A stretch of 64,000 bases of DNA from a virus (IMGVR_UViG_3300002026_000124:8176-72175); one strand, 5' to 3'; shown: positions 16,196-62,199, numbered from the stretch's first letter. Notes: generated by a model from the letters alone, not told the origin. Translations and numbers: made by a program.

Positions 16196-16226
16196 TTTGT
16201 ATTTATGATTTTAAGTCGTACATTTG
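16196..16226 (+). promoter_or_regulatory. Bacteroidota-type sigma70 promoter of tRNA operon 1
   Basis: TTTG (16196-99), 19-nt spacer, TACATTTG (16219-26). Confidence 0.75.
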
Positions 16227-16255
16227 TACTCTGTAATAGTTAAACATAGTTTGAA

Positions 16256-16330
16256 ATGAAAAATTTAGTAAACATACAACCCCAGCCGCAACAACATCCA
16301 AAAGATGGTGAATGGGAAAAGTTTGCTTAA
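16256..16330 (+). CDS. attenuator leader peptide 1 (Pro/Gln/His)
   Basis: MKNLVNIQPQPQQHPKDGEWEKFA*; QPQPQQHP core matches the downstream Pro/His/Gln tRNAs. Confidence 0.85.
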   Translation: MKNLVNIQPQPQQHPKDGEWEKFA

Positions 16331-16357
16331 ATTTTCAAGAGAAGTTTTAGGTTAATT

Positions 16358-16389
16358 AAACCCCATTCGTGACGAGTGGGGTTTTTTTT
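16358..16389 (+). terminator. attenuator terminator 1
   Basis: AAACCCCATTCG-TGA-CGAGTGGGGTTT plus T-run; 5' arm complementary to GAATGGG 16310-16316. Confidence 0.85.
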
Positions 16390-16397
16390 GTTTTTAT

Positions 16398-16473
16398 CGG
16401 GATATAGTACAGTTGGTAGTATGCGTGCTTTGGGAGCATGAGGTCGTCAGTTCGAGTCTGGCTATCCCGACCA
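16398..16473 (+). tRNA. tRNA-Pro(TGG)
   Basis: Cloverleaf, loop TT-TGG-GA, encoded CCA. Confidence 0.92.
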
Positions 16474-16474
16474 A

Positions 16475-16568
16475 CAGGAAGTGAGCGAGAGGTTGAAGCT
16501 ACTGGTCTTGGAAACCAGTCACGGCACAAAGGCGTTGTCGTGCGTGGGTTCGAACCCCACCTTCCTGA
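16475..16568 (+). tRNA. tRNA(TGG) with long variable arm
   Basis: CAGGAAG/CTTCCTG acceptor, CTGGT-CTTGGAA-ACCAG, about 25-nt variable arm. Confidence 0.8.
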
Positions 16569-16638
16569 CATGTGGACTGGTTAGAATTTACATACAAGGT
16601 CGTCCGTAATTGGAAATGATGCGTAGGAAATTCAACAT

Positions 16639-16713
16639 GGTGGGTATAGCTTAGTTGGTTAAAGCGTCTGATTGTGGTTCAGAAGACCGTGGGTTCGAAC
16701 CCCACTATCCACC
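16639..16713 (+). tRNA. tRNA-His(GTG)
   Basis: G-1, loop TT-GTG-GT, C73. Confidence 0.92.
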
Positions 16714-16721
16714 CTTTTTTT

Positions 16722-16797
16722 CGAGTAGTTGGGGAGTTGGTCACCCCGCCACATTTGGGATGTGGAGAACTCGCAGGTTCGAATCCTGCCTACTCGA
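16722..16797 (+). tRNA. tRNA-Pro(TGG)
   Basis: CCACA-TTTGGGA-TGTGG, C1:G72, A73. Confidence 0.9.
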
Positions 16798-16799
16798 CT

Positions 16800-16874
16800 G
16801 TGTTAGGCGTAGATGTTGGCATCTTCACTTGGCTGTGAACCAAGGCTTCGGGGGTTCGATTCCCCTCTAACACC
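16800..16874 (+). tRNA. tRNA-His(GTG)
   Basis: CTTGG-CTGTGAA-CCAAG, C73; no encoded G-1. Confidence 0.8.
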
Positions 16875-16966
16875 TAAAAGCGTGATAAAAGAGTTTATCA
16901 CGTTTATATGTGATTGAATATAAAATTTACTAATCAGCTTATATTATATTCAATCACATATAATAC

Positions 16967-17039
16967 TGTCTCGTGGTGTAATTGGCAACATGTTTGGCTC
17001 TGAACCAAAAGAGTAGGGGTTCGAAACCCTTCGAGACAA
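16967..17039 (+). tRNA. tRNA-Gln(CTG)
   Basis: TTTGG-CTCTGAA-CCAAA, U1:A72. Confidence 0.88.
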
Positions 17040-17044
17040 CATAT

Positions 17045-17125
17045 TATCCTTTGGCAGAATGGTCATTGCATCGCCCTTTGAAGGCGACACCGAGAGGTTT
17101 GCAGGTTCGAGTCCTGCAGGGATAA
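17045..17125 (+). tRNA. tRNA-Gln(TTG) with long variable arm
   Basis: TCGCC-CTTTGAA-GGCGA; variable hairpin ACC-GAGA-GGT; U1:A72. Confidence 0.82.
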
Positions 17126-17242
17126 CAAAAAGTTTTTGGAAATCTTGTATTTATTATTATCTTTGCATAAATATTGCTGGTATAATAACACGTTGTTATA
17201 GAATAGTACACGATGCATACTATCGCCAACATTTTTTAATAT

Positions 17243-17315
17243 TGTCCTGTGGTGTAATTGGCAACACGTCTGGTTTTGGTCCAGAAGAGTTCAGGTTCGA
17301 GACCTGACGGGACAA
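17243..17315 (+). tRNA. tRNA-Gln(TTG)
   Basis: TCTGG-TTTTGGT-CCAGA, U1:A72. Confidence 0.9.
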
Positions 17316-17467
17316 CAAATTTATTATTATGGGAAAATTAAGAGTTGGAAACAAGGAAAATTCTTTACTTAATGGTGAATGGGCAGGTCATGTTAGAAAA
17401 GATGGTAAGGAATGGACTGCAAGAAAACGCAGAAACCTTGACAAAGAAATAATTAAAAAGGAAAGCA

Positions 17468-19190: not shown

Positions 19191-19221
19191 TTTGTATTTA
19201 TCAAAAATGTCTCTATCTTTG
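19191..19221 (+). promoter_or_regulatory. Bacteroidota-type promoter of tRNA operon 2
   Basis: TTTG (19191-94), 19-nt spacer, TATCTTTG (19214-21). Confidence 0.75.
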
Positions 19222-19253: not shown

Positions 19254-19367
19254 ATGAAAAATTTACTCAACATATTATCAGTAGTCCTAGTGGATGCGCT
19301 CTTATGGGCAGCGGATGAGGATATGGTATATCGTGTCGGGTCGAAAGATACTGGAGTAGGTTATTAA
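19254..19367 (+). CDS. attenuator leader peptide 2 (Val/Leu/Asp/Ala/Trp/Glu/Met)
   Basis: MKNLLNILSVVLVDALLWAADEDMVYRVGSKDTGVGY*. Confidence 0.85.
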   Translation: MKNLLNILSVVLVDALLWAADEDMVYRVGSKDTGVGY

Positions 19368-19387
19368 TAACTGAAACAATAAAAACG

Positions 19388-19417
19388 AAACCCGACCCGA
19401 AAGAGTCGGGTTTTTTT
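19388..19417 (+). terminator. attenuator terminator 2
   Basis: AAACCCGAC-CCGAAAGA-GTCGGGTTT plus T-run; competing strand GTCGGGTCG at 19335-19343. Confidence 0.85.
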
Positions 19418-19443
19418 ATTGTTCTTTGACATGTTGGAAATTT

Positions 19444-19514
19444 GGTCTATTAGGGTATGGGTATCCTTGGTGGTTGTCGCCCACCAGAATCGAGTTCGAG
19501 TCTCGAATAGACCG
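19444..19514 (+). tRNA. tRNA-Asp(GTC)
   Basis: GGTGG-TTGTCGC-CCACC, G73. Confidence 0.85.
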
Positions 19515-19664
19515 CTAAACATTTGATTGTCGGGTTATTACTCAGAGGGTTTTAACTTACGAAGATAGACGTGTTAGTATAATAAGTACACTTGCCTTAA
19601 ATAAGTAGGAAGTTGTAACATGAAAAGGTTATCACACGTAACAAGAACGTCAAATGTTTTTAAC

Positions 19665-19734
19665 GGGGTCGTAGTTTAATGGTTAGAATACCGCACTGTC
19701 TATGCGGGGAAGGGGTTCGAATCCCACGGCTTCG
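19665..19734 (+). tRNA. tRNA-Asp(GTC), weak T-stem
   Basis: CCGCA-CTGTCTA-TGCGG; T-stem has only about 3 bp. Confidence 0.6.
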
Positions 19735-19867
19735 GCAAAATTTAAATTTATGAAAAAGAATAAGTCGTCCGAAAATACCGGACAGTTAAAATCAAAAGTT
19801 TGCTTTAAAGTAATTTCTAAAGAGGAATTAAAGAAAAACAGAAGTAATGCATATGATTACTTAATTT

Positions 19868-19992
19868 AATCTACCGATAATCTACCGTTATAACAGTAAA
19901 AAGTGCAATATGTTGCACAATCTACCGATAATCTACCGATAATCTACCGATAATTACCGTTATAACAGTAAAAAGTGCAATATGGTGCACAA
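19868..19992. repeat. AATCTACCGAT tandem repeats and duplicated palindromic unit
   Basis: Several AATCTACCGAT copies; two copies of TACCGTTATAACAGTAAAAAGTGCAATATG(T/G)TGCACA. Confidence 0.85.
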
Positions 19993-19996
19993 AAAC

Positions 19997-20080
19997 GCAG
20001 CATTATACAAGCGGTCAAAGTAGCAAGTCCTTCAAACTTGCATCTTCGGATTTCGAGGGGTTCGAATCCCCCATGCTGTA
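19997..20080 (+). tRNA. tRNA(TTC, Glu) with long variable arm and C33
   Basis: CAAGT-CCTTCAA-ACTTG; variable hairpin ATC-TTCG-GAT. Confidence 0.75.
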
Positions 20081-20131
20081 CCTTGACTTTTCTGTACCAT
20101 AGGACTATTTATAATAAAATATTATACTCCT

Positions 20132-20776
20132 ATGGCACGAAAAGAAAAAAAATATCACTTTATTTATAAAACAATAAACATCATAAATAATAAGTTTTAT
20201 ATTGGTATGCATTCAACAGACAATTTGAATGATGGATATGTTGGTAGCGGAACAAGACTTTGGTATTCAATAAATAAATATGGTAGGGAAAATCATAGAT
20301 TGGAAATACTTGAATTTCATGAAACACGAATTATATTAAAAGAACGTGAAAAGAATTTAGTAAATGAGGATTTATTGAAAAATCCTATGTGCATGAACAT
20401 AAAGATTGGTGGTGAAGGTGGATTAAATGGTCTTTCACAAGAATCAATTAAAAAAATACGTAAGGGTGCATCTGATTTCATGAAAATGAAGTGGAATGAA
20501 CCAGAATTTAGAAATATGTGTTCTCAACGTTCTATAATTAAAATGAAAGAAAATCATAGACTTGGTAAAATGAGATATGATACGTTTATTGGTAAATCTC
20601 ATAGTGAAGAAACAAGAGAACTTATGAAAGTAGTTCATAAGGGAATGGGTATTGGTTCTACAAATTCTCAATTCGGTACTTGTTGGATAACTAAGTGTGG
20701 CGTAAATAAAAAAATTAATAATAATGATTTGTCCTTATATATTAGTGATGGTTGGTGTAAGGGTAGAGTCATATAA
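20132..20776 (+). CDS. GIY-YIG (Seg-like) homing endonuclease
   Basis: FIYKTINIINNKFYIGMHS...GYVGSG; NUMOD3-like GKSHSEETR. Confidence 0.88.
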   Translation: MARKEKKYHFIYKTINIINNKFYIGMHSTDNLNDGYVGSGTRLWYSINKYGRENHRLEILEFHETRIILKEREKNLVNEDLLKNPMCMNIKIGGEGGLNGLSQESIKKIRKGASDFMKMKWNEPEFRNMCSQRSIIKMKENHRLGKMRYDTFIGKSHSEETRELMKVVHKGMGIGSTNSQFGTCWITKCGVNKKINNNDLSLYISDGWCKGRVI

Positions 20777-20777
20777 T

Positions 20778-20849
20778 GGTCCGTTCGTCTAACGGTTAGG
20801 ACGGCAGGTTTTCATCCTGTTAATAGGGTTTCGATTACCCTACGGACTA
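20778..20849 (+). tRNA. tRNA-Glu(TTC)
   Basis: GCAGG-TTTTCAT-CCTGT. Confidence 0.9.
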
Positions 20850-20856
20850 CTAAAAT

Positions 20857-20929
20857 TGCGTGTTGTGGAAGTTGGCTCTCCGGACAGAATCATAATCTGT
20901 AGACACTGGTTCAAATCCAGTACACGCAA
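20857..20929 (+). tRNA. tRNA(CAT), Met or Ile2
   Basis: ACAGA-ATCATAA-TCTGT. Confidence 0.8.
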
Positions 20930-20936
20930 CAATATT

Positions 20937-21011
20937 GCTCTCTTAACTCAGTTGGTTCAGAGTGTCACGCTTACAACGTGAAGGTCGGGGGTTCGACTCC
21001 CTCAGAGAGCA
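20937..21011 (+). tRNA. tRNA-Val(TAC)
   Basis: TCACG-CTTACAA-CGTGA. Confidence 0.92.
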
Positions 21012-21208
21012 CAAATGCCGTAAGTCTGGATAAAATTCCTTAAAGGGAAACTGGAGTAGCGAATAACTTAAAGCGAAGTGGTTTCGTGATAGACGGTTGT
21101 GATGAAAAGTTAGTCACTCATTAGTCGCAGGGTAGAATGGTGTAAGAATGGGAGCACGTTTGCGATAAGCAAAAAGACGAAAGGTTCGAATCCGAAATAC
21201 CCCTTAAT

Positions 21209-21283
21209 AGTCCCTTAGTTTAGTTGGTAAAAACGTCTGGCTTACATCCAGAAGATGCACTGGTTCGAATCCAGTAGGGACTA
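21209..21283 (+). tRNA. tRNA-Val(TAC)
   Basis: TCTGG-CTTACAT-CCAGA. Confidence 0.9.
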
Positions 21284-21478
21284 CTTTTGACATACGGTTT
21301 AGGACCGTTATAGCTTCGGCTATAAAGGGGGTGGGATGTTCGCTACTGACCACCCCTTTACAAAAAACGTTTAATTTTGCATAGTTATTCTTATTAATTT
21401 AAACTATCTGTGCAAATTTTATCGGTTGTAGAGGCGATAAGCATAGTTTATCGGTTGTAGAGACGATAAAATTTAAAT

Positions 21479-21560
21479 ACGGGTATAGTCCAACGGTAGG
21501 ACGCTCTCTGTCCAAGGGGAGAAATAGGCTGCAGTCAGGGTTCAATTCCCCTTACCCGTG
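21479..21560 (+). tRNA. atypical tRNA, ambiguous anticodon (GTC or TCC), long variable arm
   Basis: ACGGGTA/TACCCGT acceptor, G73, irregular anticodon loop, variable hairpin GGCT-GC-AGTC. Confidence 0.6.
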
Positions 21561-21620
21561 CAAAAAATAATTATTATCCTTGTATTATATATTAACTGCA
21601 TATACTAAGATAATAAATAT

Positions 21621-21702
21621 CTCGCAGTGTCGTAATTGGTAGCCGGGACAGTCTAAGAAGCTGTTGCCTTCGGGTGTGTGGGTTCGAGTCCCACTTGCGA
21701 GA
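21621..21702 (+). tRNA. tRNA-Leu(AAG)
   Basis: ACAGT-CTAAGAA-GCTGT, class II arm, A73. Confidence 0.88.
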
Positions 21703-21709
21703 CGAATAT

Positions 21710-21765
21710 GGGGATGTGATGAAATTGGCGATACATGCCAGACTTAGAATCTGGCGCTAATAAAC
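21710..21765 (+). pseudogene. truncated tRNA-Leu(TAG), 5' part
   Basis: Acceptor 5' strand, D arm and CCAGA-CTTAGAA-TCTGG present; no T arm before the next tRNA. Confidence 0.65.
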
Positions 21766-21777
21766 TGGCTTCACTTT

Positions 21778-21854
21778 GGGGCAGTAGTGACAATTGGCTA
21801 ACACGACAGATTTGCACTCTGTAAATGGGGTATCATACATCCCCTGCTCCACCA
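21778..21854 (+). tRNA. tRNA-Ala(TGC), aberrant T-loop
   Basis: G3:U70, A73, CCA; T-loop reads ATCATAC. Confidence 0.7.
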
Positions 21855-21923
21855 CAACATTGGTTTCGAAAACCAACGTCTCCACTTTTCCAGAAAACCA
21901 AGTATTTATAATAAAGAAATATT

Positions 21924-22742
21924 GTGAATACTTGGAAAACTAATAGAAAAACAATTTTAATTAATTGTGAAAATTGTGGAAATGAATTCAAAAAAACATT
22001 ATCTGAATATAATCGTTCAGAAAAATTAAATAAAAAACATTTTTGTTCATTAAAATGTAATAATGAATCTAAAAAGATTAAACTAAAATTCTGTTTACAA
22101 TGTAATGAAGAGTTTATTCCCGATAAAAATAAAACTAAGTTCTGTTCACATTCTTGTAACGCAAAATATAATAATAAAAATAGAAAGGGTATTAAATACA
22201 ATATAAGTGAAAATGGTTTAATTGGATTAAGGGAATCGTATAAAAATAATTTCGGATATGATATTATAAAATTTAGAAATAACTATTATCAATCACAGAA
22301 TTATTGTAAAGAATGTAATGAACCTATTCCATATGAAAAAAAGAATCATGTTTTTTGTAATCGGGATTGTAAAAGAACATATGATAGAAAGAATTTAACT
22401 GAATATCAAAAATACTATAAAGATTGTCAATTTAAATTTGGTTTATCAGACTATCCAAATGAATTTGATTTCGAATTGATTAAAACACATGGTTGGTATC
22501 AACCAAAAAATCATGGCAATAACTTAGGTGGAATTAGTAGAGACCATATGATTTCAGTAAAATATGGATATGAAAATAATATTAGTTCTGAGATAATTAG
22601 TCATCCTGCCAATTGTCAATTGATGATTCATAATGAGAATATTAGTAAATATAAGAATTGTTCAATAACATTAGAAGAACTAATGATTAAAATTGATAAT
22701 TGGAATGAAAAATATTCACAAATAACAATGGGTTTAACATAG
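21924..22742 (+). CDS. HNH homing endonuclease with Zn-finger repeats
   Basis: CxxC...FCSxxC repeats; C-terminal SRDHMIS...HPANCQLMIHNEN. Confidence 0.8.
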   Translation: MNTWKTNRKTILINCENCGNEFKKTLSEYNRSEKLNKKHFCSLKCNNESKKIKLKFCLQCNEEFIPDKNKTKFCSHSCNAKYNNKNRKGIKYNISENGLIGLRESYKNNFGYDIIKFRNNYYQSQNYCKECNEPIPYEKKNHVFCNRDCKRTYDRKNLTEYQKYYKDCQFKFGLSDYPNEFDFELIKTHGWYQPKNHGNNLGGISRDHMISVKYGYENNISSEIISHPANCQLMIHNENISKYKNCSITLEELMIKIDNWNEKYSQITMGLT

Positions 22743-22805
22743 TGGCGAGTGTTAACCGTAAGTCCTGCGTGGCTGGTAACGGTGGTTCGATTCCATCAGC
22801 CTGTT
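22728..22805 (+). pseudogene. degenerate tRNA-like remnant
   Basis: GGTGG-TTCGATT-CCATC T arm, weak acceptor, no clear anticodon arm; overlaps HNH stop. Confidence 0.4.
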
Positions 22806-22811
22806 GTTTAT

Positions 22812-22884
22812 GCCCTGTTGACGTAATTGGCAACCGTATTGGTCTTAAAAGCCAAGTTTCTCAGTTCGAATCTGAGGCGGGGTA
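22812..22884 (+). tRNA. tRNA-Leu(TAA) lacking the long variable arm
   Basis: TTGGT-CTTAAAA-GCCAA; 4-nt variable loop GTTT; A73. Confidence 0.8.
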
Positions 22885-22920
22885 CTATTTAAAAATTTTA
22901 TAGTATTTATGATAAAAACT

Positions 22921-23241
22921 ATGGATACAAAACAAAAATTATTCGAGATGATGGGTAAACTAAATCATGATTTTAAACAATCAAAAATTGTTGAAGGGTT
23001 TGAAAATAGTAATAATCCAATTAATTCCGAACAATTAACCCAAAAGGATGTGGCATCTAAAATTAGAAATCGAGGATATCAATATCACACAGATACTACA
23101 CTTAAAACAATTGGTGTAAATGCTATTATAGATGAAATGAAACCCAGAGATTTACAATATTTTTTGGATTTAGGGTTTGTACGTGAACCATTAGGTGATT
23201 TAGGTTCAGAATATGATTCATTAAATTATCATTACATATAA
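22921..23241 (+). CDS. hypothetical protein with LFEMM leader
   Basis: MDTKQKLFEMMGKLNHDF; late motif 22903-22910. Confidence 0.6.
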   Translation: MDTKQKLFEMMGKLNHDFKQSKIVEGFENSNNPINSEQLTQKDVASKIRNRGYQYHTDTTLKTIGVNAIIDEMKPRDLQYFLDLGFVREPLGDLGSEYDSLNYHYI

Positions 23242-23245
23242 ATCT

Positions 23246-23761
23246 ATGGACTACCATTTGAGTTTATTTATCATGTCGATTCTTGTATTTGTTTCCTATG
23301 TCGGAGCAGTATGGATTAAATTCGGTGTACAGCCATCAATAAGTGCAAGTTATGATTGTTGGAAAGGCTTATGGCAATCACTTTTCGTATTATTCTGTTG
23401 GGGATTTGCATTTCCTGCAATGGTTATTGGTATAGAAGTAACGCCATTAATGTTTTTTGCTTGTGCTGGAATTATGTTTGTAGGTGCCGCATATGAAATA
23501 AAAATTAAATGGGTATATGAATATCATATGGTATTTGCAATATCCGGAATTATATTTAGCCAGTTAGCAATTTACTTTGGTTATGATTTACTATGGGTTA
23601 ACATAGTATCGGTTGTATTATCAGTATTAATATTATTAGGTAAATTGTATCTTGGTTTAAAGAATCACTTCTGGTGGATAGAGTTAGTTGCCTTTGCTGC
23701 AATAGTTTATGCAATGGGAACTAAGATTATTCCTTTCTTATATCTAACAACACTTAATTAA
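23246..23761 (+). CDS. multi-pass membrane protein
   Basis: About five hydrophobic helices. Confidence 0.7.
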   Translation: MDYHLSLFIMSILVFVSYVGAVWIKFGVQPSISASYDCWKGLWQSLFVLFCWGFAFPAMVIGIEVTPLMFFACAGIMFVGAAYEIKIKWVYEYHMVFAISGIIFSQLAIYFGYDLLWVNIVSVVLSVLILLGKLYLGLKNHFWWIELVAFAAIVYAMGTKIIPFLYLTTLN

Positions 23762-23764
23762 AAT

Positions 23765-23847
23765 TCGTTCGTGGTAGAGTGGTCGATTACATTGGTCTCC
23801 AAAACCAATAGAGAAATCTCACGTGGGTTCGAATCCTACCGAACGAG
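23765..23847 (+). tRNA. tRNA-Trp(CCA) with long variable arm
   Basis: TTGGT-CTCCAAA-ACCAA; variable hairpin GAG-AAAT-CTC; G73. Confidence 0.85.
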
Positions 23848-24247
23848 CATAAATAATGGTAAAAATTGCGGGTACGTACACAAGTCAAAGTTCTTTCCAA
23901 CGGAACACCGACTACTACTGAGGGTAGAGATATTCCCAAGAGCAATATCAGTTAGTGTATGACCATTATTTTATAATTTTTTATAAAATTTCCAAAAATC
24001 TTTAAATTTTTATTATTTTTTATTTTTCAGATAGTATTTATCTGAAAAGTATAACTATGGCAATATCAAAACAAGACAATGCTTGTAGAACGTTCATTAT
24101 AAATGAAAAGGAGTACAATGTCTATAAAGATGGGAAGCACACATTTGTTAAATCTGAGGATAAAATTGTATTTAATAGTACAAAATCTGATATAACTGTG
24201 TCTCAATGGTTAAAAAAAATAAGAAATACTAAATAATAAGAATTTAA

Positions 24248-54494: not shown

Positions 54495-55157
54495 ATGGCA
54501 AGAAAAGAAAAACAATATCATTTCATTTATAAGACAACTAATAAGTTGAATGGTAAATATTATTACGGAATGCATTCCACAAATAATTTAAATGATGGAT
54601 ATTATGGTTCAGGAAAAAGATTGAGACGTTCTTTGAATAAATATGGTAAAGAAAATCATGTTGTTGAATATCTTGAATTTCTACCCGATAGAAAATCGCT
54701 AATTGAACGTGAAAAAGAAATTGTTAATTTAAATGAAATTGCGAAAGAAGATTGTATGAATCTAATGGTTGGTGGAAAAGGTGGTTTTATTTCAGAACAG
54801 GCATTGAAGGGAAGATATGCTGCAGATAAAATTTTGATTGAAAAATATGGTGAGAATTGGCGAAGAGTTATTTTTAGAAAATATTTTGATGGTTTAAGTG
54901 ATGAAGAAAAAGAATTAATTTATCAGAAAATGAAAAAAACTAATGAAATAAATGGATATGACTATAAAGGTTTTTTAGGAAAAAAACATTTACCTGAAAC
55001 CATAGAAAAAATGAAAAAAAGTAAGAATGTTGGGATAAATAATTCACAATTTGATACTTGCTGGATTTATTCTGATGAATATAGTAAACCACAAAAAATT
55101 AAAAAATTTCAATTAAATGAATTTATTAATCGTGGTTGGCGAAAGGGAAGAAAATAA
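54495..55157 (+). CDS. GIY-YIG (Seg-like) homing endonuclease
   Basis: MARKEKQYHFIYKTTN...YYGMHST...GYYGSG; paralogue of 20132-20776. Confidence 0.88.
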   Translation: MARKEKQYHFIYKTTNKLNGKYYYGMHSTNNLNDGYYGSGKRLRRSLNKYGKENHVVEYLEFLPDRKSLIEREKEIVNLNEIAKEDCMNLMVGGKGGFISEQALKGRYAADKILIEKYGENWRRVIFRKYFDGLSDEEKELIYQKMKKTNEINGYDYKGFLGKKHLPETIEKMKKSKNVGINNSQFDTCWIYSDEYSKPQKIKKFQLNEFINRGWRKGRK

Positions 55158-55160
55158 TAC

Positions 55161-55241
55161 TGTGACGTGGATGAATGGTTTAGTCACCACGCTGATACCG
55201 TGGGTCGCAAGACAACGTGGGTTCGAGTCCCACCGTCACAA
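55161..55241 (+). tRNA. tRNA-Ile(GAT) with long variable arm
   Basis: CCACG-CTGATAC-CGTGG; variable hairpin GTC-GCAA-GAC. Confidence 0.85.
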
Positions 55242-55273
55242 CAAAGCAATCAAAATTTTAATCATTCACTAAT

Positions 55274-55358
55274 GGAAGAGTGTCCGAGTGGTTTATGGTG
55301 GCAGTCTTGAAAACTGCTGGATGTAAAAGTCCCGTGGGTTCGAATCCTACCTCTTCCG
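55274..55358 (+). tRNA. tRNA-Ser(TGA)
   Basis: GCAGT-CTTGAAA-ACTGC, G73. Confidence 0.93.
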
Positions 55359-55397
55359 CACTATTTAATTGGAAATTGGGTAGAATATTTAAAAAAA

Positions 55398-55482
55398 GGA
55401 GGGGGGACAGGATGGTAATGTGCCTGTTTGCTAAACAGAGGCTGGGATAATACCCAAGAGTGGTCGGTACACTCTCTCTCCG
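55398..55482 (+). tRNA. tRNA-Ser(GCT), aberrant T-loop
   Basis: Loop TTGCTAA; T arm GAGTG-GTCGGTA-CACTC. Confidence 0.75.
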
Positions 55483-55483
55483 C

Positions 55484-55930
55484 AAAAAAGGTTAGTAATC
55501 CAGAAGCCTAACCAGCCGAAGGGTGAAGTTTCCTTAATGAAATTGATACAAACAAGCACCTGTGGTGGGATTGCAATGTGTTGATAAATTAGTTAAAAAC
55601 TCATTTCGACTTTAATATTGGAACATGAAGATTTATGGTGCACCTTATCTTCTGGAAGGTTCGAAACCTTTGGAGTCGGCTAGAATCACATGCAGTGGAT
55701 ATCATCATGTGGTTTGTGCACCAAAAAAGAAGTCATGACTCTTTGAGGTGTAAAAGTTCTGGGATGCATAAGAGGCTGACCTAATGTTCTGTTGGAATTT
55801 GAGTGTTAGTAGATTTATTTACACGTACTTGGCAATACGATTAACACGATAGTTCTCCGAGACATTTTAAGTTACCTGCAATGGTATTCGGGAGACGTGA
55901 GTAGAAGGCTCACCCCAGAACTTATTTTTA
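55484..55930 (+). ncRNA. candidate large structured ncRNA
   Basis: No long ORF; long-range helices 55754-63/55914-23 and 55636-43/55716-23. Confidence 0.45.
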
Positions 55931-55932
55931 AT

Positions 55933-56008
55933 GCATCGGTAGTGCTATAATGGTTAAAACGGCTGTCTGTTAAACAGCGAGATGCAGGTTCGACTCCTGC
56001 TCGATGCG
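55933..56008 (+). tRNA. tRNA-Asn(GTT)
   Basis: GCTGT-CTGTTAA-ACAGC, G73. Confidence 0.85.
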
Positions 56009-56163
56009 CAAAAAGGGACAAGTAAATGGAACAAACCTTGTTTCCGCAGGGTGAGTTTGCCGTCTAAAGCACGGACATTTGCATCGGAATTGTCCTTTAT
56101 AGGTCGGGTTGCAGAGGGCGCAATTCGGGTAACTGCCTCACAAGGTAGCCTATATAATATTAT

Positions 56164-56235
56164 GGAGATATAGCTGAGTTGGTTTAGCGGTGGCGTGAAG
56201 TCCCACAGACACAGGTTCGAATCCTGTTATTTCCA
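56164..56235 (+). tRNA. tRNA-Phe(GAA)
   Basis: Loop GTGAAGT, one stem mismatch. Confidence 0.75.
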
Positions 56236-56326
56236 CTTGAGTGCGATAAATAATGTTTCGCAGCATATTATTAATGCATCCCTGTTAATATGTTGTGGGT
56301 GAGATTCCCACGCTTAAAAGAATTAT

Positions 56327-56399
56327 GGTGCAGTAGCAAAGTTGGTCAACGCATCGGACTGAAAATCCGACTATGGTGGTTCGAATCCACCCTGCACCA
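56327..56399 (+). tRNA. tRNA-Phe(GAA)
   Basis: TCGGA-CTGAAAA-TCCGA. Confidence 0.9.
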
Positions 56400-56406
56400 C
56401 AGTAAT

Positions 56407-56481
56407 GCGGGTATAGCACAACGGTTAGTGCGTCTGGCTTCCAACCAGAGGATGTCGGTTCGATTCCGATTACCTGCTCCA
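56407..56481 (+). tRNA. tRNA-Gly(TCC)
   Basis: TCTGG-CTTCCAA-CCAGA, U73, CCA. Confidence 0.93.
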
Positions 56482-56483
56482 TT

Positions 56484-56555
56484 GCACACTATAACTTAAT
56501 TGGTAAAGTGCTTGATTTGTAATCAAGATATGCGGTTCGAGTCCGATAGAGTGCT
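56484..56555 (+). tRNA. tRNA-Thr(TGT), imperfect stems
   Basis: CTTGA-TTTGTAA-TCAAG. Confidence 0.7.
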
Positions 56556-56641
56556 CAACAATGTCTTCCACACCTCTAAATTATGTGCATCTGGAAGGCT
56601 ACTTGTCGAACCCAATCATAGTACTGTGATTGGGTTCATAT

Positions 56642-56714
56642 GGTGATGTGGCGCAACGGTCAGCGCAGGACGCTTATATCGTCAAGGTTGTGGGTTCGAG
56701 TCCCACCTTCACTA
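56642..56714 (+). tRNA. tRNA-Ile(TAT)
   Basis: GACG-CTTATAT-CGTC, A73. Confidence 0.85.
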
Positions 56715-56729
56715 CAAAATTAATAACAT

Positions 56730-56818
56730 GGGAGTGTAGCTGATTAGGCTTTAGCTGCAGACTGTTAATCTGTGAATGAAAAATTGAAATAAAGTAGGTT
56801 CGAATCCTTCCTCTCCCG
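56730..56818 (+). tRNA. tRNA-Asn(GTT) with 20-nt A-rich variable region
   Basis: GCAGA-CTGTTAA-TCTGT, G73. Confidence 0.78.
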
Positions 56819-56856
56819 CTCTAAATAATTGCAATATTCTTCGTATTTATGTTGGA

Positions 56857-57756
56857 ATGAATTACAAAAATTTACATACTATTATTAACGAAGAAATTCA
56901 GAACGTTTTAGATGAAACGTATAAAAGTGTTGACGAAATTAAAAAATTAGCGAATAATATTCTTATCACAACTGCTGAGAAAAATTTCGAAAAATATAAT
57001 ACTGACGGGTCATTCAGGTACATTTATGGTGTAAATGTAGACCAAATGGATTCAAATAAGTACGATGAAATAAAAAATTATGTTATTGAAAGTAATGTTC
57101 AAATATATTTCCAACCCAAAGACGATAAAGGTAGTAATAAAGCAGATTATAGCAATATTGTAACACATAAAGGTGAAAAGTATAATCCAAGAACTGAAAG
57201 AGATATTAACCTTTATTATGATTACAATAGATTTAAAGAAAAAATTGATGAAATTTTAATTGAACATGTAATTAGTAGAACTGATTTTTATTCTAAACTA
57301 TATTACGAATTCTACACATCTTTGGTTCACGAACTTCAACATTCTTATGACGATTATCGTAGTGGTGGTATGGCGTATAACACTCCTGAAAATAAGAATT
57401 ATAGGAAAAATTATTACCGGAAAATGGAAAATAATATTGTGAGAAGTCAAATTAATGACATGGAAATGTATAAGAAATATTTAAATCTACCCCACGAAAT
57501 ATGGGCGAGATTTTCACAAGCGATGATTAAGGTTCATTTTTATACTTGGGATATTGATAAATCAAGTGATACTCAAATCATATATTCTATGTATCCATTA
57601 AAACAGGTATTAAATGATTTCAGATATGCATTTGATAATTTTAAGGTTTTATCACCGGAAACACAAAAAAGACTCTATAGAAAAGTCTCACAATTCTGGC
57701 ATATTGAACAGGAAAAAATTAATGAGCTTAATAAGAATGGTGGTAATAAACCTTAA
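56857..57756 (+). CDS. zincin-like metallopeptidase with INEEI leader
   Basis: LVHELQH and downstream HE; late motif 56843-56850. Confidence 0.65.
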   Translation: MNYKNLHTIINEEIQNVLDETYKSVDEIKKLANNILITTAEKNFEKYNTDGSFRYIYGVNVDQMDSNKYDEIKNYVIESNVQIYFQPKDDKGSNKADYSNIVTHKGEKYNPRTERDINLYYDYNRFKEKIDEILIEHVISRTDFYSKLYYEFYTSLVHELQHSYDDYRSGGMAYNTPENKNYRKNYYRKMENNIVRSQINDMEMYKKYLNLPHEIWARFSQAMIKVHFYTWDIDKSSDTQIIYSMYPLKQVLNDFRYAFDNFKVLSPETQKRLYRKVSQFWHIEQEKINELNKNGGNKP

Positions 57757-57797
57757 ATTTCCCAATATTAATAATGTTTCTAATAGTTCTTAATAAT

Positions 57798-57869
57798 GCA
57801 CCGGTAACTCAGTGGTAGAGTGTCTGGCTGTTAACCAGAGAGTCGGGGGTTCGAATCCCTCTCGGTGCG
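57798..57869 (+). tRNA. tRNA-Asn(GTT)
   Basis: TCTGG-CTGTTAA-CCAGA, G73. Confidence 0.93.
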
Positions 57870-57940
57870 CAAAACACTTGCTAATTGAAAAATTTTAATT
57901 AACTTTACTACAAAATAATTTTAATTAAAATATAATAAAA

Positions 57941-58315
57941 ATGGAAGGTATGAGAATCAGAGGTAATAGAGAAACTAAAGTTGATAAAGCAAACTTAATT
58001 GAACAAATTAAACTGAATAAAAAAAATCATGTCAGGGAGTACGAAAAGGCAATTCTTGCTTATAAAGAAGAGGCACTAAATCAATTAAGTAAAGAGTTTA
58101 AGAGAGTTGAAAATGGTGCTCTTGACGCTAAATTGGATTTGATAACCCCAATCAATAATGCTAAAAACTACGATAAGATTATCGAAATGTTTGAATGGGA
58201 AGTTGAAGATTATGTCGTTTTGACACAAGCAGAATTCAATGAATATGTTCAGGACGAAACCGAATTTGCTAGACAAGCTAAATTCTCGAACACATTTTAC
58301 TCCAATTCAATTTAA
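57941..58315 (+). CDS. hypothetical protein
   Basis: 124 aa ORF. Confidence 0.6.
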   Translation: MEGMRIRGNRETKVDKANLIEQIKLNKKNHVREYEKAILAYKEEALNQLSKEFKRVENGALDAKLDLITPINNAKNYDKIIEMFEWEVEDYVVLTQAEFNEYVQDETEFARQAKFSNTFYSNSI

Positions 58316-58364
58316 ACATTGGTAACGTCAATATGAAATAAGAGTATTTATGTGAAAAAGAATT

Positions 58365-58583
58365 ATGAAAAAAATTTGGAATTTTATTATTAGTAACATT
58401 ATCATGACCATTAAATCGGCATGGTACGCAATTCTTGCAGCAATAATTGGAACAATCGTTGGAATTATCTGGGATTTTAATACCGGATTTTTCACGTTTT
58501 TTGGAATTTGCATTGCATTTGTATTATTCATTTGGGTTCGTCAATTATGGTGGTGGATTACTAAAACAGGTGATTACAAATGA
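58365..58583 (+). CDS. small membrane protein
   Basis: Two transmembrane-like segments. Confidence 0.6.
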   Translation: MKKIWNFIISNIIMTIKSAWYAILAAIIGTIVGIIWDFNTGFFTFFGICIAFVLFIWVRQLWWWITKTGDYK

Positions 58584-59098
58584 AAGTAACTATTTTAAAA
58601 AATAGAAGAAGACCATTTCCATTCTTTCGTTTTCCAAGTCTAACAATATTCAGGAGAACTAAATCTTATTCAATTAAAATAAGATTTATGTTCACTGAAT
58701 CGTGTTTTTATAAATTTAATGATGCTGACCAATATGACATAAACAAATTATTTGGCTTTAGCATTGGTTTACACCATAATAATTCATTTAGATTTGGTTG
58801 GAGACCCAATGCTGATTTAAGTAAAATGGAAATCGTTGGTTATGAATATCTTAATAAATTAAGAATTCCAACATTACCAATTTGTGAAGTTAAGGTTGGT
58901 AAGTGGTATGGTTACGAAATAAGATATAATGCTAAAACGAATTATATTGAATACACAGTGACTAGTGAAGATGAAAATTTTGGAATGCAACATCCGGTAA
59001 AACAAAAAAATAAAATATTTTTCGGATATAAATTGGGTTTGTATTTCGGTGGTAATAAAAAACCACCACATAAGATGATTTTTTATAGGAGAAGTTAA
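58580..59098 (+). CDS. hypothetical protein
   Basis: 172 aa coupled ORF. Confidence 0.6.
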   Translation: MKVTILKNRRRPFPFFRFPSLTIFRRTKSYSIKIRFMFTESCFYKFNDADQYDINKLFGFSIGLHHNNSFRFGWRPNADLSKMEIVGYEYLNKLRIPTLPICEVKVGKWYGYEIRYNAKTNYIEYTVTSEDENFGMQHPVKQKNKIFFGYKLGLYFGGNKKPPHKMIFYRRS

Positions 59099-59099
59099 T

Positions 59100-60008
59100 A
59101 TGGGATTTGATATCAATAGCAAAACTGGTCGTTGGATTGACGAATATGGATTAATGTTGGGGCATAACCCCGATTGGAATCCAAATGGTGATATGGGTAA
59201 GGGCGATTGTATTGGTACGGCATTAGATGCATATCTTGCATATGACTATAAACCATTTGTGAGAGCGGTAAAGGGTTGCTACGAGATTAAAGAAGACGAA
59301 AAAGGATTATATGTTGAGGGTTATAGACATCCAAGCTATAAGAATGATGATTATAACGACATGAGTCGAGACCATATTCTGAATACTTTGGTACTAATGA
59401 AACTTAGTGATGAAAAGGTTTATTTAAAGTTTTTATCCAAAAATTTAAGGTGGAGAATTTCTGATAGATATAAATTTACCATTGATTTGTGGTTATGGAT
59501 GAAAGGAATTACCGGAAATCGATTTGCGATGTTAGCATATTATATGGTCATTATCGTAAGTATGTTTTTCTCAATATTGTTGAATAAAATAATCTATTTG
59601 TTAGCGGGTATCAGTAAAGAAGTTCCACAAGACAAATATGTACAGTTTGACAGAAGTAAATTTTCTAAATTTCAATTATTTTTAATTGGAATAAGATTTC
59701 CGATGTATACATTATGTCAAATGTCTTTCATGCTATATGCCACACCCGATTCCCCTGGTAAATGGTTATTGAAAAAGATTTGCTTATGGGGAATTGATAA
59801 AGAAAATTTCTTATTGAGAATAATGTATGGTGGAAAGGTTAGTGCTGAAGATGTCTACAATTATAAATCAATGAGTAGCTGGCGTTGGAGCACATACTTA
59901 AATGAATTAAATGACAGGGATTTATACATTATCACTGACCCCAAAGAACTTGAAGCTAATGTACTTGATGTAGATTTGCTTAGAAAAATGTATGAAAAAT
60001 TAAAATAA
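59100..60008 (+). CDS. hypothetical protein
   Basis: 302 aa ORF. Confidence 0.6.
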   Translation: MGFDINSKTGRWIDEYGLMLGHNPDWNPNGDMGKGDCIGTALDAYLAYDYKPFVRAVKGCYEIKEDEKGLYVEGYRHPSYKNDDYNDMSRDHILNTLVLMKLSDEKVYLKFLSKNLRWRISDRYKFTIDLWLWMKGITGNRFAMLAYYMVIIVSMFFSILLNKIIYLLAGISKEVPQDKYVQFDRSKFSKFQLFLIGIRFPMYTLCQMSFMLYATPDSPGKWLLKKICLWGIDKENFLLRIMYGGKVSAEDVYNYKSMSSWRWSTYLNELNDRDLYIITDPKELEANVLDVDLLRKMYEKLK

Positions 60009-60009
60009 T

Positions 60010-60092
60010 GCCGATGTGGTTCAGGGGTCGACAACGCCAGTCTTGTAAACTGGAGACGTAAGTCCGCGCTGGTTCGAATCCAGCCATCGGCT
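60010..60092 (+). tRNA. tRNA-Thr(TGT) with long variable arm
   Basis: CCAGT-CTTGTAA-ACTGG; variable hairpin GAC-GTAA-GTC. Confidence 0.85.
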
Positions 60093-60133
60093 CTCTAAAA
60101 ATAACTTTATTAATACAAATAACATGGAAAGCG

Positions 60134-60355
60134 ATGAAGGTAAGCAGAGAAAAAACAGCAACCTTGTTTCTATTCTTAGGAACATTTTTCAACCCATTGG
60201 GTTACGATGCAGCTCTAAAGTGGCTGATGGACACAACAGGCAGTTATTGGTTTTCAATTTCTATTTTTTACCTTGTATCGCTGTCTTGTTTTATATCTTA
60301 CTTTGTATTAGCTAAGATAAACCCTTTTAAAATTTTTACAAGAAAAAGGAATTAA
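60134..60355 (+). CDS. small membrane protein
   Basis: Two hydrophobic segments. Confidence 0.5.
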   Translation: MKVSREKTATLFLFLGTFFNPLGYDAALKWLMDTTGSYWFSISIFYLVSLSCFISYFVLAKINPFKIFTRKRN

Positions 60356-60387
60356 TGTTGGAAATTAATTCCCTTTTTATTACATTT

Positions 60388-60459
60388 GCCCTTATAGTAT
60401 AACGGATAATACAGAGGTCTTCTAAACCACAGATTGGGGTTCGATTCCCCGTAGGGGTA
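60388..60459 (+). tRNA. tRNA-Arg(TCT)
   Basis: Loop CTTCTAA, A20. Confidence 0.85.
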
Positions 60460-60478
60460 CTATCTTAAATTTAAAACA

Positions 60479-60661
60479 ATGAATAGAGTAAAAATTACGA
60501 TTAATGTCGACAGCGAAAAAGAATTAACTGAGAAAGAAATTGTTGAAGCAATGGTTAATTTTAAATATCGCTTAGAAGGATACACCACCGAGTCTCCTGA
60601 ATTTTTATCTAATGCTGAAATTAGTATTGATAAAAAATATGTTATAACAACACTCTCATAG
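60479..60661 (+). CDS. hypothetical protein
   Basis: 60 aa ORF between tRNAs. Confidence 0.45.
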   Translation: MNRVKITINVDSEKELTEKEIVEAMVNFKYRLEGYTTESPEFLSNAEISIDKKYVITTLS

Positions 60662-60723
60662 TTCAACGGATAGAATTGGAGTTTCCTAAACTTTAGACAC
60701 AGGTTCGATTCCTGTTGGGAGTA
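60652..60723 (+). tRNA. tRNA-Arg(CCT)
   Basis: Loop TTCCTAA, A20. Confidence 0.85.
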
Positions 60724-60738
60724 CAAAAAAATGTTATT

Positions 60739-61119
60739 ATGATTAGATTTTTAAATAAAAACGATAAAAAGGAGCTAAACAATTTAATAAAAATTGCTCT
60801 TAATGAAAAAATGTTTATTGTAAAAAAGAAAAATCATCATTTCTTCGGCTATTTTGAAGACAATAAATTAGTTGGCGTTGTTGGATTTTTTACAATGAAA
60901 AGATTTAAAACTATTGGTTTTGTAAGTGCATTTGTTTTACCCGAATATCGTGGAAAGGGTATTTATGATAAACTTTCGAAAGAAAGATTGGAATATTGTC
61001 AACAACATTATAACGGTTTTATCATATTTATAACAACAAATGATAAAAGCAGACCACAGATGGAAAAAATTGGTTTTAAATTGATTGAACATCAATATAG
61101 AATGTATTTAAATATTTAA
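60739..61119 (+). CDS. GNAT acetyltransferase
   Basis: FVLPEYRGKGIY motif A. Confidence 0.85.
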   Translation: MIRFLNKNDKKELNNLIKIALNEKMFIVKKKNHHFFGYFEDNKLVGVVGFFTMKRFKTIGFVSAFVLPEYRGKGIYDKLSKERLEYCQQHYNGFIIFITTNDKSRPQMEKIGFKLIEHQYRMYLNI

Positions 61120-61124
61120 CAATT

Positions 61125-61197
61125 GCCCTTGTAATTCAACGGATAGAATGCTTGGTTTCGACCCAAGTCGTTGCGGGTTCGAGTCCTGCCGAGGGTA
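61125..61197 (+). tRNA. tRNA-Arg(TCG)
   Basis: CTTGG-TTTCGAC-CCAAG. Confidence 0.9.
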
Positions 61198-61203
61198 CAA
61201 AAT

Positions 61204-61278
61204 ACACTTGTGGCGCAATTGGATTAGCGCAATTGATTACGAATCAATAGGTTGGGGGTTCGAATCCCTTCAGGTGTA
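61204..61278 (+). tRNA. tRNA-Arg(ACG)
   Basis: ATTGA-TTACGAA-TCAAT. Confidence 0.9.
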
Positions 61279-61287
61279 CTAATATGA

Positions 61288-61536
61288 ATGAAAATGAAAA
61301 AGTTAAAAACTAATATCTTAAAAAAGATTAATCAGAGAGTCCGTATTGTAAAAAACGGAGAATCTTTTGAAGTTCAAAGTAGAAAATCTGATATTGGAAA
61401 TTGGATTGGTATAAGTACTTTTGCCTCCCATCGAAAAGCATTAGATAAAAAGCATAACTATATAGTTATGATAGTGTTGAGGGATTTAGGATTTCGTTCT
61501 GAATTTGCTAACAGAAGAAAAAAAAGGAAAGGATGA
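61288..61536 (+). CDS. basic hypothetical protein
   Basis: 82 aa ORF. Confidence 0.5.
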   Translation: MKMKKLKTNILKKINQRVRIVKNGESFEVQSRKSDIGNWIGISTFASHRKALDKKHNYIVMIVLRDLGFRSEFANRRKKRKG

Positions 61537-61760
61537 AAAAGGAAAGGGTTATTGTAATATATGCCGATACATGGGATAATTTATGTGTTGAAATGCTAGG
61601 TTATTATCATGACCATTGCCGACATTATTATGCCGGATTAACCACCGAAACTCCCAAACACTTACAGGATTTAATTAAAGAGGAAAAAAATTATGTCTTT
61701 CTTTGCGAAGAAGACGAACCATATAAAGTCAATAATATGAAAAATTTTAATAGTTCTTAG
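61533..61760 (+). CDS. hypothetical protein
   Basis: 75 aa ORF. Confidence 0.5.
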   Translation: MKKERVIVIYADTWDNLCVEMLGYYHDHCRHYYAGLTTETPKHLQDLIKEEKNYVFLCEEDEPYKVNNMKNFNSS

Positions 61761-61786
61761 TTTGCCACTCTTGGTAAATTAAGATT

Positions 61787-61993
61787 ATGGTAGCTTTAAA
61801 AAAGAAGACCAAAAAACCACCAATGAAATATTGGTTGGTTGAACTCACCCTTACGAGTGGCAGAGTTCGAACATTTTATGTAAAAGCAAGAACAGAGTTT
61901 GATGCCTATAATAAGGCAGATTATTATGCTAGTCTTGCAAGTAACAAACAATTATTTGACTTGACAACATCTGAATTTAGATTGTTGTCATAA
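61787..61993 (+). CDS. hypothetical protein
   Basis: 68 aa ORF. Confidence 0.5.
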   Translation: MVALKKKTKKPPMKYWLVELTLTSGRVRTFYVKARTEFDAYNKADYYASLASNKQLFDLTTSEFRLLS

Positions 61994-62045
61994 ACACCGC
62001 AGGGTGGATGTAACTCCTAAAATCGTTATATTCACCCTGCTCCAT

Positions 62046-62116
62046 GCGTCTGTCGTTTAATGGATAGGACAGTCCCGTTCAAGGGATGTGTGGGGGTTCG
62101 AATCCCTCCGGATGCA
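62046..62116 (+). tRNA. tRNA with 6-nt anticodon loop (TTC or TCA)
   Basis: GTCCC-GTTCAA-GGGAT; Glu-like D-stem; canonical T arm. Confidence 0.65.
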
Positions 62117-62123
62117 CAATATT

Positions 62124-62199
62124 GCGGGATAGGTGTAAGTGGTTGCATGTCTGCTTGCCAAGCAGAAGGACTTAGAGAGTTCGACTCTCTCATCCCGCA
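62124..62199 (+). tRNA. tRNA-Gly(GCC)
   Basis: TCTGC-TTGCCAA-GCAGA; A73 and 8-nt variable region are atypical. Confidence 0.78.

Follow-up and report, generated by a model that had tools for sequence, protein, structure and literature searches.

Among the described transcription attenuators, the closest to the system reported here are those of enterobacteria, namely trpL, hisL, leuL and pheL, and the multivalent leaders of thr (Thr and Ile), ilvGMEDA and ilvBN (Ile, Leu and Val). In these, a promoter-proximal open reading frame (ORF) of regulatory codons and an intrinsic terminator precede the regulated genes, an antiterminator competes for the 5' arm of the terminator, and the position of the ribosome decides between the two structures; in the multivalent leaders several amino acids are sensed by one leader. 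In E. coli, the pheST operon (pheM) has a leader-peptide attenuator that controls phenylalanyl-tRNA synthetase. T-box riboswitches, too, sense the state of a specific tRNA by means of a terminator and an antiterminator located before translation-related genes. The listed features of the enterobacterial multivalent attenuators recur, with the role of the ribosome predicted, in four units found in a 64-kb stretch of viral DNA (IMGVR_UViG_3300002026_000124:8176-72175; hereafter the window, meaning the whole stretch), where each unit stands ahead of a cluster of tRNA genes. Judging from the sequence, we consider it likely that these units are ribosome-mediated leader-peptide attenuators, which sense the decoding speed, that is, the supply of usable cognate tRNAs, and feed it back on the transcription of the tRNA genes. 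Leader-peptide attenuation of tRNA genes, either phage or cellular, was not encountered in full-text literature searches, in line with an earlier note on this DNA, made by a model from the sequence alone, which knew of no such description for phage tRNA operons.

Four leader units and their tRNA clusters

The window is the terminal part of a single 72-kb contig and contains 47 tRNA genes detected by ARAGORN, every one of them on the + strand, as well as an extra tRNA-Ala at 21778-21851 (anticodon TGC, G3:U70 pair), which was found with Rfam and is missed by ARAGORN. Four large tRNA blocks can be delineated: Pro/His/Gln, Asp/Glu/Met/Val/Leu/Ala/Trp, Lys/Tyr and Thr/Cys/Ile/Ser/Asn/Phe/Gly/Arg. 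Each of them begins with a unit in which a promoter, an ORF of 24-42 codons holding an antiterminator strand, an intrinsic terminator and the first tRNA follow each other in this order, the units starting at positions 16196, 19191, 43540 and 53942. This organization had been proposed in the earlier note, and all the parts were located at the places given there.

The amino acid composition of the leaders is the central observation. In the cores of leaders 1-4, 8/8, 16/16, 8/10 and 26/27 residues, respectively, are cognate to the tRNAs encoded downstream, which bears out the earlier claim that leader cores match the downstream anticodons. A partition test was performed conservatively on the whole ORFs minus the start codon, thus including the N-terminal tag and the tail. 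Here 76 of the 129 residues are cognate, and none of the 1,000,000 random 3+7+2+8 partitions of the 20 amino acids reached this number (the best random partition gave 71). A chance match of the leaders to the tRNA sets is excluded. For amino acids that are served by two anticodon classes within a block, codons of both kinds are usually present in the leader (Gln CAA/CAG, Lys AAA/AAG, Ile ATT/ATA, Gly GGA/GGC, Leu CTN/TTA and Arg CGT/AGA). Three AGT codons are present in leader 4 but no tRNA-Ser(GCT) is encoded on the window contig; in the relatives this tRNA is found past the position where the window contig ends.

All features of the units are on the + strand. In unit 1, the promoter (16196..16226) is an exact match to the Bacteroidota consensus TTTG-N19-TAnnTTTG, and the leader ORF of 24 codons (16256..16330) has a core at codons 8-15 (16277-16300) composed exclusively of Gln, Pro and His. 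The antiterminator strand GAATGGG (16310..16316) is the complement of the terminator 5' arm, with a predicted duplex energy of -12.1 kcal/mol (p=0.02, 200 shuffles). The intrinsic terminator (16358..16392) comprises a 12-bp stem and a T run, and is followed by the tRNA cluster (16398..17316) with three Pro, two His and three Gln tRNAs. Unit 2 has a promoter of the Bacteroidota type (19191..19221) and a leader ORF of 37 codons (19254..19367), whose core at codons 10-25 (19281-19328) consists exclusively of Val, Leu, Asp, Ala, Trp, Glu and Met. The antiterminator strand GTCGGGTC (19335..19342), again the complement of the terminator 5' arm, and the terminator (19387..19420) precede a cluster (19444..23848) of three Asp, two Glu, one Met, two Val, two Leu, one Ala and one Trp tRNAs, among which homing-endonuclease ORFs are interspersed.

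In unit 3, the promoter (~43540..43571) is only near the consensus (CTTG ... TACTTTG). The leader ORF of 30 codons (43608..43700) has Tyr or Lys at eight of the ten positions of its core (codons 7-16, 43626-43655), and the antiterminator strand GAATCGGG (43666..43673) is a perfect complement of the terminator 5' arm (p=0.005 versus shuffles). The terminator is located at 43728..43757 and the cluster at 43763..44699, the latter comprising three Lys-ttt, one Lys-ctt and two Tyr tRNAs. Unit 4 again has a promoter of the Bacteroidota type (53942..53972), followed by the longest leader ORF of 42 codons (54015..54143), with a core at codons 6-32 (54030-54110) in which all residues except one are Ser, Asn, Ile, Thr, Arg, Gly, Phe or Cys. 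The antiterminator strand ACGGGTTC, i.e., (A)CGGGTTC, is at 54117..54124 (p=0.005 versus shuffles) and the terminator at 54163..54200. The cluster (54214..62200) has 19 tRNAs for Thr, Cys, Ile, Ser, Asn, Phe, Gly and Arg with ORFs interspersed. The promoters predicted in the earlier note thus follow the exact consensus in units 1, 2 and 4, and that of unit 3 is off consensus.

In general, the leader ORFs start 22-76 nt past the promoter -7 box, and the terminators are GC-rich stems of 9-12 bp with T runs, 6-22 nt ahead of the first tRNA. The antiterminator strands are 7-9 nt long and begin 6-10 nt past the core in all four units, as had been noted before. Units 1 and 3 are preceded by a separate terminator of the upstream genes (at 43473-43500 ahead of unit 3), so that those genes can do without the second hairpin. 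No further intrinsic terminator was found on the + strand within tRNA blocks 1, 2 or 4.

A fifth, small tRNA block (Leu-taa, Leu-caa and Met; 34558-35728) has no leader and lies downstream of protein genes and a transfer-messenger RNA (tmRNA) gene. It is closed by a bidirectional terminator (35732-35755), and the trio is kept in two relatives (L001 and L003). The division of the 20 amino acids among four operons (3+7+2+8), claimed in the earlier note, therefore holds but is not exclusive, since the leaderless block repeats Leu and Met. The tmRNA itself (33174-33458; 69.5 bits with Rfam) has a conserved position in the relatives, in which the tag peptide ends with ..AA.

Related leaders and an independent lineage

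Relatives of the window were gathered from IMG/VR with protein and pattern searches. In approximately 25 contigs of related giant phages the four leader families recur before the same tRNA sets, with 10, 13, 8 and 11 distinct leaders in families 1-4, respectively; the 39 leaders analyzed below are those with an automatically delimited terminator. Measured from the end of the N-terminal tag to the antiterminator, the cognate share in families 1-4 is 75, 90, 55 and 90% against a background of 8, 35, 13 and 45%. Every amino acid of the set is present in its own leader in 39/39 cases, a single Cys, Trp or His included, and the order of residues drifts among the relatives while the composition stays. 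Whether the leader composition tracks the cluster content in related genomes had been set beforehand as a test, and the outcome was as anticipated, both in these contigs and in a phage with another partition described below. In family 2, hydrophobic and acidic residues interchange at the same positions within the set, which speaks against a membrane peptide and points to selection for residues belonging to the set. A TTG codon occurs in the family-2 leader in 3/3 contigs with tRNA-Leu(CAA) in block 2 and in 0/5 contigs without it, although these are few and related sequences.

The promoters are also conserved. The promoter box is found upstream of 9/10 family-1 leaders, 10/13 family-2 leaders and 11/11 family-4 leaders, while in family 3 the box containing GTATTTAT is kept in the relatives with the strict consensus present in 2/8 only. 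Altogether, a strict Bacteroidota promoter is located at most 110 nt upstream of 32/42 leaders. Gap runs in the alignments are multiples of three inside the ORFs in 16/19 (family 2) and 32/45 cases, and past the stop codon in 6/29 and 4/25 cases. Such gaps are the signature expected of a translated frame, and the start and stop positions of the leaders are conserved as well.

The last two observations bear on the possibility that the units are RNA elements read by a protein or directly by tRNA, as in T-box-like or protein-mediated antitermination, with the ORF being incidental. A terminator/antiterminator pair is indeed the output stage of T-boxes and protein-dependent attenuators as well. The indels in multiples of three and the conserved start and stop positions, however, indicate translation, and the variable core keeps its composition rather than its sequence or structure. 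No Rfam family reached the gathering threshold on the four leaders (the best sub-threshold scores were Trp_leader 24.7 vs 41, Thr_leader 28.6 vs 55 and His_leader 21.4 vs 49), and none of the four leader regions was matched by the T-box covariance model, even with a limit of E<=1. The Rfam matches obtained with a permissive E-value were sub-threshold and terminator-driven, and were set aside. T-boxes, which bind tRNA directly via a specifier codon without a ribosome, are not known to be a feature of Bacteroidota. We regard an RNA element of this kind as highly unlikely.

A few further leader-like sequences were seen in the relatives. A pattern scan with the family-1 N-terminus gave 36 matches, mostly chance ones inside coding regions (e.g., L061 and L064), and these were not used. 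A fifth kind of leader is located before tRNA-Pro and tRNA-Glu in a 6.5-kb contig (L050, IMGVR_UViG_3300012956_000388; 5932-6190), which ends there. It has the N-terminus of family 1, a mixed core (Ser, Val, Asp, Arg, Tyr, Glu, Pro, Gln and Lys), its own terminator and its own antiterminator TTGGGACT. In relative L003, the family-1 leader was not found, and the place that this leader has in other relatives, directly before the first tRNA of block 1, is occupied by an HNH ORF. In family-2 relatives a conserved CTCCTTTCTTA, resembling the 3' end of 16S rRNA, is found between the leader stop codon and the terminator (columns ~110-125 of the family-2 alignment A1; e.g., L026:1851-2004). It is absent from unit 2 of the window, where the ORF spans the region.

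A search by tRNA similarity led to the cultured Cellulophaga phage phi4:1 (L068, NC_021788.1; 145 kb), whose tRNA array has two units of the same build with a different partition of amino acids. Unit A has a Bacteroidota-type promoter, an ORF of 22 codons (L068:8707-8775) with a core in which 11/11 residues are Gln, Arg, Leu, His, Glu or Pro, and a strand GGGAGG complementary to the terminator arm. The tRNAs behind it are Pro, Glu, Gln, His, Leu-tag, Leu-taa and Arg-acg. Unit B has the same promoter type and an ORF (L068:9667-9750) with 17/17 core residues from Thr, Lys, Gly, Ile, Val, Asp, Ala, Arg and Tyr, the tRNAs behind it being Ala, Lys, Ile, Gly, Met, Asp, Thr, Val, Arg-tct, Met and Tyr. 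Unlike in the window, Glu, Leu and Arg are grouped with Pro/His/Gln in phi4:1, and the leader composition follows this grouping. In total 34 of the 47 leader residues are cognate, a number not reached by any of the 500,000 random partitions. The single Arg codon is CGT in leader A, with tRNA-Arg-ACG behind it, and AGA in leader B, with tRNA-Arg-UCU behind it. In GenBank, one of the two leaders is inside the coding sequence of the hypothetical protein gp075 and the other, before tRNA-Pro, is unannotated. The device is present in Cellulophaga phage phi17:2 too, and no such leader was found in Flavobacterium phage immuto, which has 3-4 tRNAs. A third candidate in phi4:1, gp076 (L068 11759-11860) before Ser/Asn/Trp/Phe tRNAs, includes the residues W, W, F, S, N and N but has no convincing terminator and was not counted.

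The leaders could alternatively encode functional micro-proteins, for instance a small membrane helix in family 2, with ordinary terminators behind them and a coincidental match to the tRNAs. The family-2 core is hydrophobic and family 4 has a conserved peptide motif, SRNG..IFC. Such micro-proteins would nevertheless require a coincidence of probability <1e-6 in the window and <2e-6 in phi4:1, acidic residues replace hydrophobic ones within the presumed family-2 helix, and the antiterminator co-varies with the terminator arm (see below). We find this explanation hardly credible.

The predicted switch and what it would sense

The duplex between the ORF and the terminator 5' arm was better than in 200 dinucleotide shuffles of the ORF (p<=0.05) in 33/39 leaders, always just 3' of the core, and in family 3 p<=0.02 was obtained in 8/8 relatives. 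In the family-2 alignment (A1) five pairs of this helix show compensatory changes, and the covariation is 0.187 compared with 0.088 in shuffles (0/500 reach the observed value). The register control was clean, a slide of 1-3 columns abolishing the covariation. These covariation figures are from A1 only, the terminator arms being out of register in the family-4 alignment (A2). Single compensatory swaps are found in families 3 and 4, such as the change from A-U to U-A in L030 (family 3).

The two states were also folded under the assumption that RNA does not pair across a bound ribosome. In all four window leaders, 7-10 nt of the 5' arm are predicted to pair with the antiterminator when the ribosome is masked over the early or middle core and synthesis has not reached the 3' arm; with the ribosome masked at the stop codon, the 5' arm is free and the terminator forms. 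In unit 4, with the ribosome in the first or middle core, even the complete transcript has its energy minimum in the antiterminator state. The stop codon is placed in the classical geometry in family 1, 10-12 nt beyond the antiterminator, and in most family-2 relatives, where the two overlap (GTCGGGTAA). As modeled, the units should be switches that stop transcription when translation is smooth. The pairing of the antiterminator strand with the terminator 5' arm that the earlier note pointed out is in agreement with the shuffle controls, the compensatory changes and the constrained folds. That note had not identified classical 1:2 protector helices, and indeed none is general, but in family 2 such a helix (codons 4-7 with the antiterminator) is predicted by RNAalifold and is significant in 7/11 leaders. 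At the level of sequence, the parts of the units, their conservation, the match of leader codons to tRNAs and the alternative pairing are well established.

The proposed mechanism would operate as follows. The host RNA polymerase would initiate at the Bacteroidota-type promoter and a ribosome would start the short ORF. With cognate aminoacyl-tRNAs plentiful, the ribosome would pass through the core and either cover the antiterminator strand or sit between this strand and the terminator while the terminator is made. The hairpin would then form and transcription would halt ahead of the first tRNA. Scarcity of any one tRNA of the group would make the ribosome linger in the core, and the free antiterminator strand, which begins 6-10 nt further on, would pair with the emerging 5' arm of the terminator, letting the polymerase enter the tRNA genes. 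Since the leader needs the very tRNAs that the operon produces, each unit would be a negative-feedback controller of one tRNA group. Translation of the ORF, ribosome stalling, the direction in which read-through responds and the use of this response in the course of infection are inferred here. The suggestion of the earlier note that attenuation responds to the cognate tRNA supply is supported by the composition, the match of codons to isoacceptors, the covariation and the indels in multiples of three.

A less specific arrangement would be a general gauge of translation, in which any slow or absent translation gives read-through, without sensing of groups and with the composition as a by-product. 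The switch geometry is responsive to any slowing of the ribosome, and since a 1:2 protector helix is not general, read-through should be the default state of untranslated transcripts. Such a gauge leaves unexplained why four disjoint compositions in one genome each fit their own cluster, why every set member is retained in 39/39 leaders and why CGT or AGA is used in phi4:1 according to the downstream Arg isoacceptor, and for these reasons we consider it unlikely. Yet another possibility is that the signal is uncharged tRNA during host starvation, as in attenuators of biosynthetic operons, with which the mechanism is shared; a stalled ribosome is blind to whether a tRNA is missing or uncharged. 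Extra tRNA, however, is no remedy for the lack of an amino acid, and isoacceptor-matched codons (Arg CGT/AGA in phi4:1 and TTG with tRNA-Leu-CAA) are not required by amino-acid sensing. A starvation sensor thus seems quite unlikely, and since synonymous codons follow the downstream isoacceptor, the supply of tRNA is favored over that of amino acids as the signal.

Several observations weigh against attenuation by tRNA supply as the control of these clusters. At the level of the switch, 6/39 antiterminator duplexes are no better than shuffles, unit 2 of the window included (p=0.11). In units 1-3 the terminator is thermodynamically stronger than the antiterminator, and the model therefore needs kinetic control, as in trp. 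In window units 2-4 the stop codon is 18-26 nt past the antiterminator, so that occlusion there rests on the assumption that RNA cannot pair across the bound ribosome. The 1:2 protector helix is not significant in window units 1-3 or in families 1, 3 and 4 overall, and most units should consequently read through without translation. As for the composition, family 3 is just 55% cognate, with conserved Ser and Gly in the core. CTG codons do not correlate with tRNA-Leu(CAG) in the relatives, no Met tRNA was detected by ARAGORN in cluster 2 of the relatives though their leaders keep Met codons, and relative L019 has a Pro tRNA in cluster 4 with no Pro codon in the leader. Finally, Bacteroidota promoter-like sites are present inside block 1 (17135-17165, preceding the last tRNA-Gln and protein genes) and block 4 (60358-60388, directly preceding tRNA-Arg(tct)). 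Together with the leaderless trio they imply that some of the tRNA supply may escape the switch.

Genomic setting, possible role and comparison with known systems

The window encodes a T4-type large terminase, a ribonucleotide reductase and a tail-fibre chaperone domain, and the IMG/VR relatives reach 327-365 kb, which makes the window a fragment of a giant phage genome. Of the DNA sequencing runs containing most of the stretch, the three best are microbial-mat metagenomes, and a search of sequencing runs gave no RNA run with this DNA. The closest cultured large terminase subunit (TerL) is that of Flavobacterium phage immuto (28% identity). As this TerL comes from a Flavobacterium phage and the leader promoters fit the Bacteroidota consensus, the host is likely to belong to Bacteroidota.

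Two genes of the RNA-repair type are close to the tRNA blocks. A cREC_REC (cyclic-phosphate processing receiver) protein is encoded just after tRNA block 1 (17468-17890) and an Rnl1-like RNA ligase (PHROG 562) 3 kb before the Lys/Tyr block (39578-40675). Their proximity suggests that tRNA damage is of importance to this phage. The known targets of anticodon-nuclease defences include Lys and Tyr tRNAs. A role of the units against such nucleases, based on the gene context, is a conjecture. In its fuller form, the units would be on-demand counter-defence sensors, each reporting the loss of its group, caused by host anticodon nucleases or by a phage-induced decay of host tRNAs, and switching on the replacement set only, an idea that we put forward tentatively and rather doubt. 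If it were true, the partition of the code would mirror the tRNAs that are attacked together, as with the Lys/Tyr unit beside the Rnl1-type RNA ligase, and tRNA-rich Bacteroidota phages would run a codon-resolved, self-correcting supply of tRNAs.

The tRNA genes of the window have a number of other features. Several tRNAs of 82-95 nt that normally belong to class I (Pro, Glu, Lys, Asn and others) have a long paired variable arm in the ARAGORN folds (16475-16569, 19997-20082, 44198-44283 and 56730-56819). An aberrant tRNA at 62046-62117 has a Glu-like D arm and a 6-nt anticodon loop, GUUCAA, which is readable as UUC or UCA, and a tRNA with the anticodon CTA is present in relatives L004 and L014. 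TGA terminates just 2/47 long ORFs of the contig, and it is also the stop codon of leader 4; the ORFs gain only modest length when TGA is read as sense. Reading of stop codons by the aberrant tRNA or by the CTA tRNAs is possible. Homing-endonuclease-type ORFs (NUMOD3, HNH and GIY-YIG) are found among the tRNA genes at 20132-20776, 21924-22742 and 54477-55157. A 17-mer, GTTCTTTGACATGYTGG, is located downstream of attenuators at 19421-19437, where it precedes the first tRNA-Asp(gtc) of block 2, and at 54350-54366, where it precedes tRNA-Cys(gca) of block 4, the distance being approximately 7 nt in both cases. It has three matches in the window against 0.17 expected and is conserved at more than 20 related loci. 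Could it be a second promoter, a processing signal or an endonuclease site?

Why large phages have dozens of tRNA genes, and how these are used, is an open question in the field, the usual answers being codon bias, compensation for host tRNA decay and escape from tRNA-cutting defences. If the proposed attenuation is true, these would be the first known tRNA genes controlled by the decoding speed of their own codons, with a direct feedback from the ribosome to the tRNA supply, and the phage would handle its tRNA pool as several separately monitored groups. Each leader states the tRNAs that it would report on, and Cellulophaga baltica with phi4:1 is a cultured system for the bench, in which the synonymous Arg codons of the two leaders offer a clean mutant design. 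The units are compact and modular, and could serve as reporters of the availability of individual tRNAs.

As far as can be read from the DNA, the window units have four features of such attenuators, namely a short ORF with signs of translation, matching codons, an intrinsic terminator and a mutually exclusive antiterminator. Compared with the enterobacterial attenuators, they are located on a phage, have Bacteroidota promoters and mostly lack the 1:2 protector helix. Each leader covers up to eight amino acids and the four together all twenty, and the regulated genes encode tRNAs instead of biosynthetic enzymes, so that the product closes the loop directly on decoding. The pheST attenuator is similar in that leader-peptide attenuation is applied to a component of the translation apparatus and not to biosynthesis, but it controls a synthetase, senses one amino acid and is cellular. 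The device is also that of phi4:1 and phi17:2, which share with the window the promoter, the leader made of the amino acids of the downstream tRNAs, the antiterminator, the terminator and the tRNA block; phi4:1 differs in having two clear units, another partition and no sequence similarity in the leaders. The class of mechanism is a textbook one, and what is new is its application to tRNA genes, the logic of the feedback, the range of amino acids covered by each leader and a genetic code shared out among a few viral leaders.

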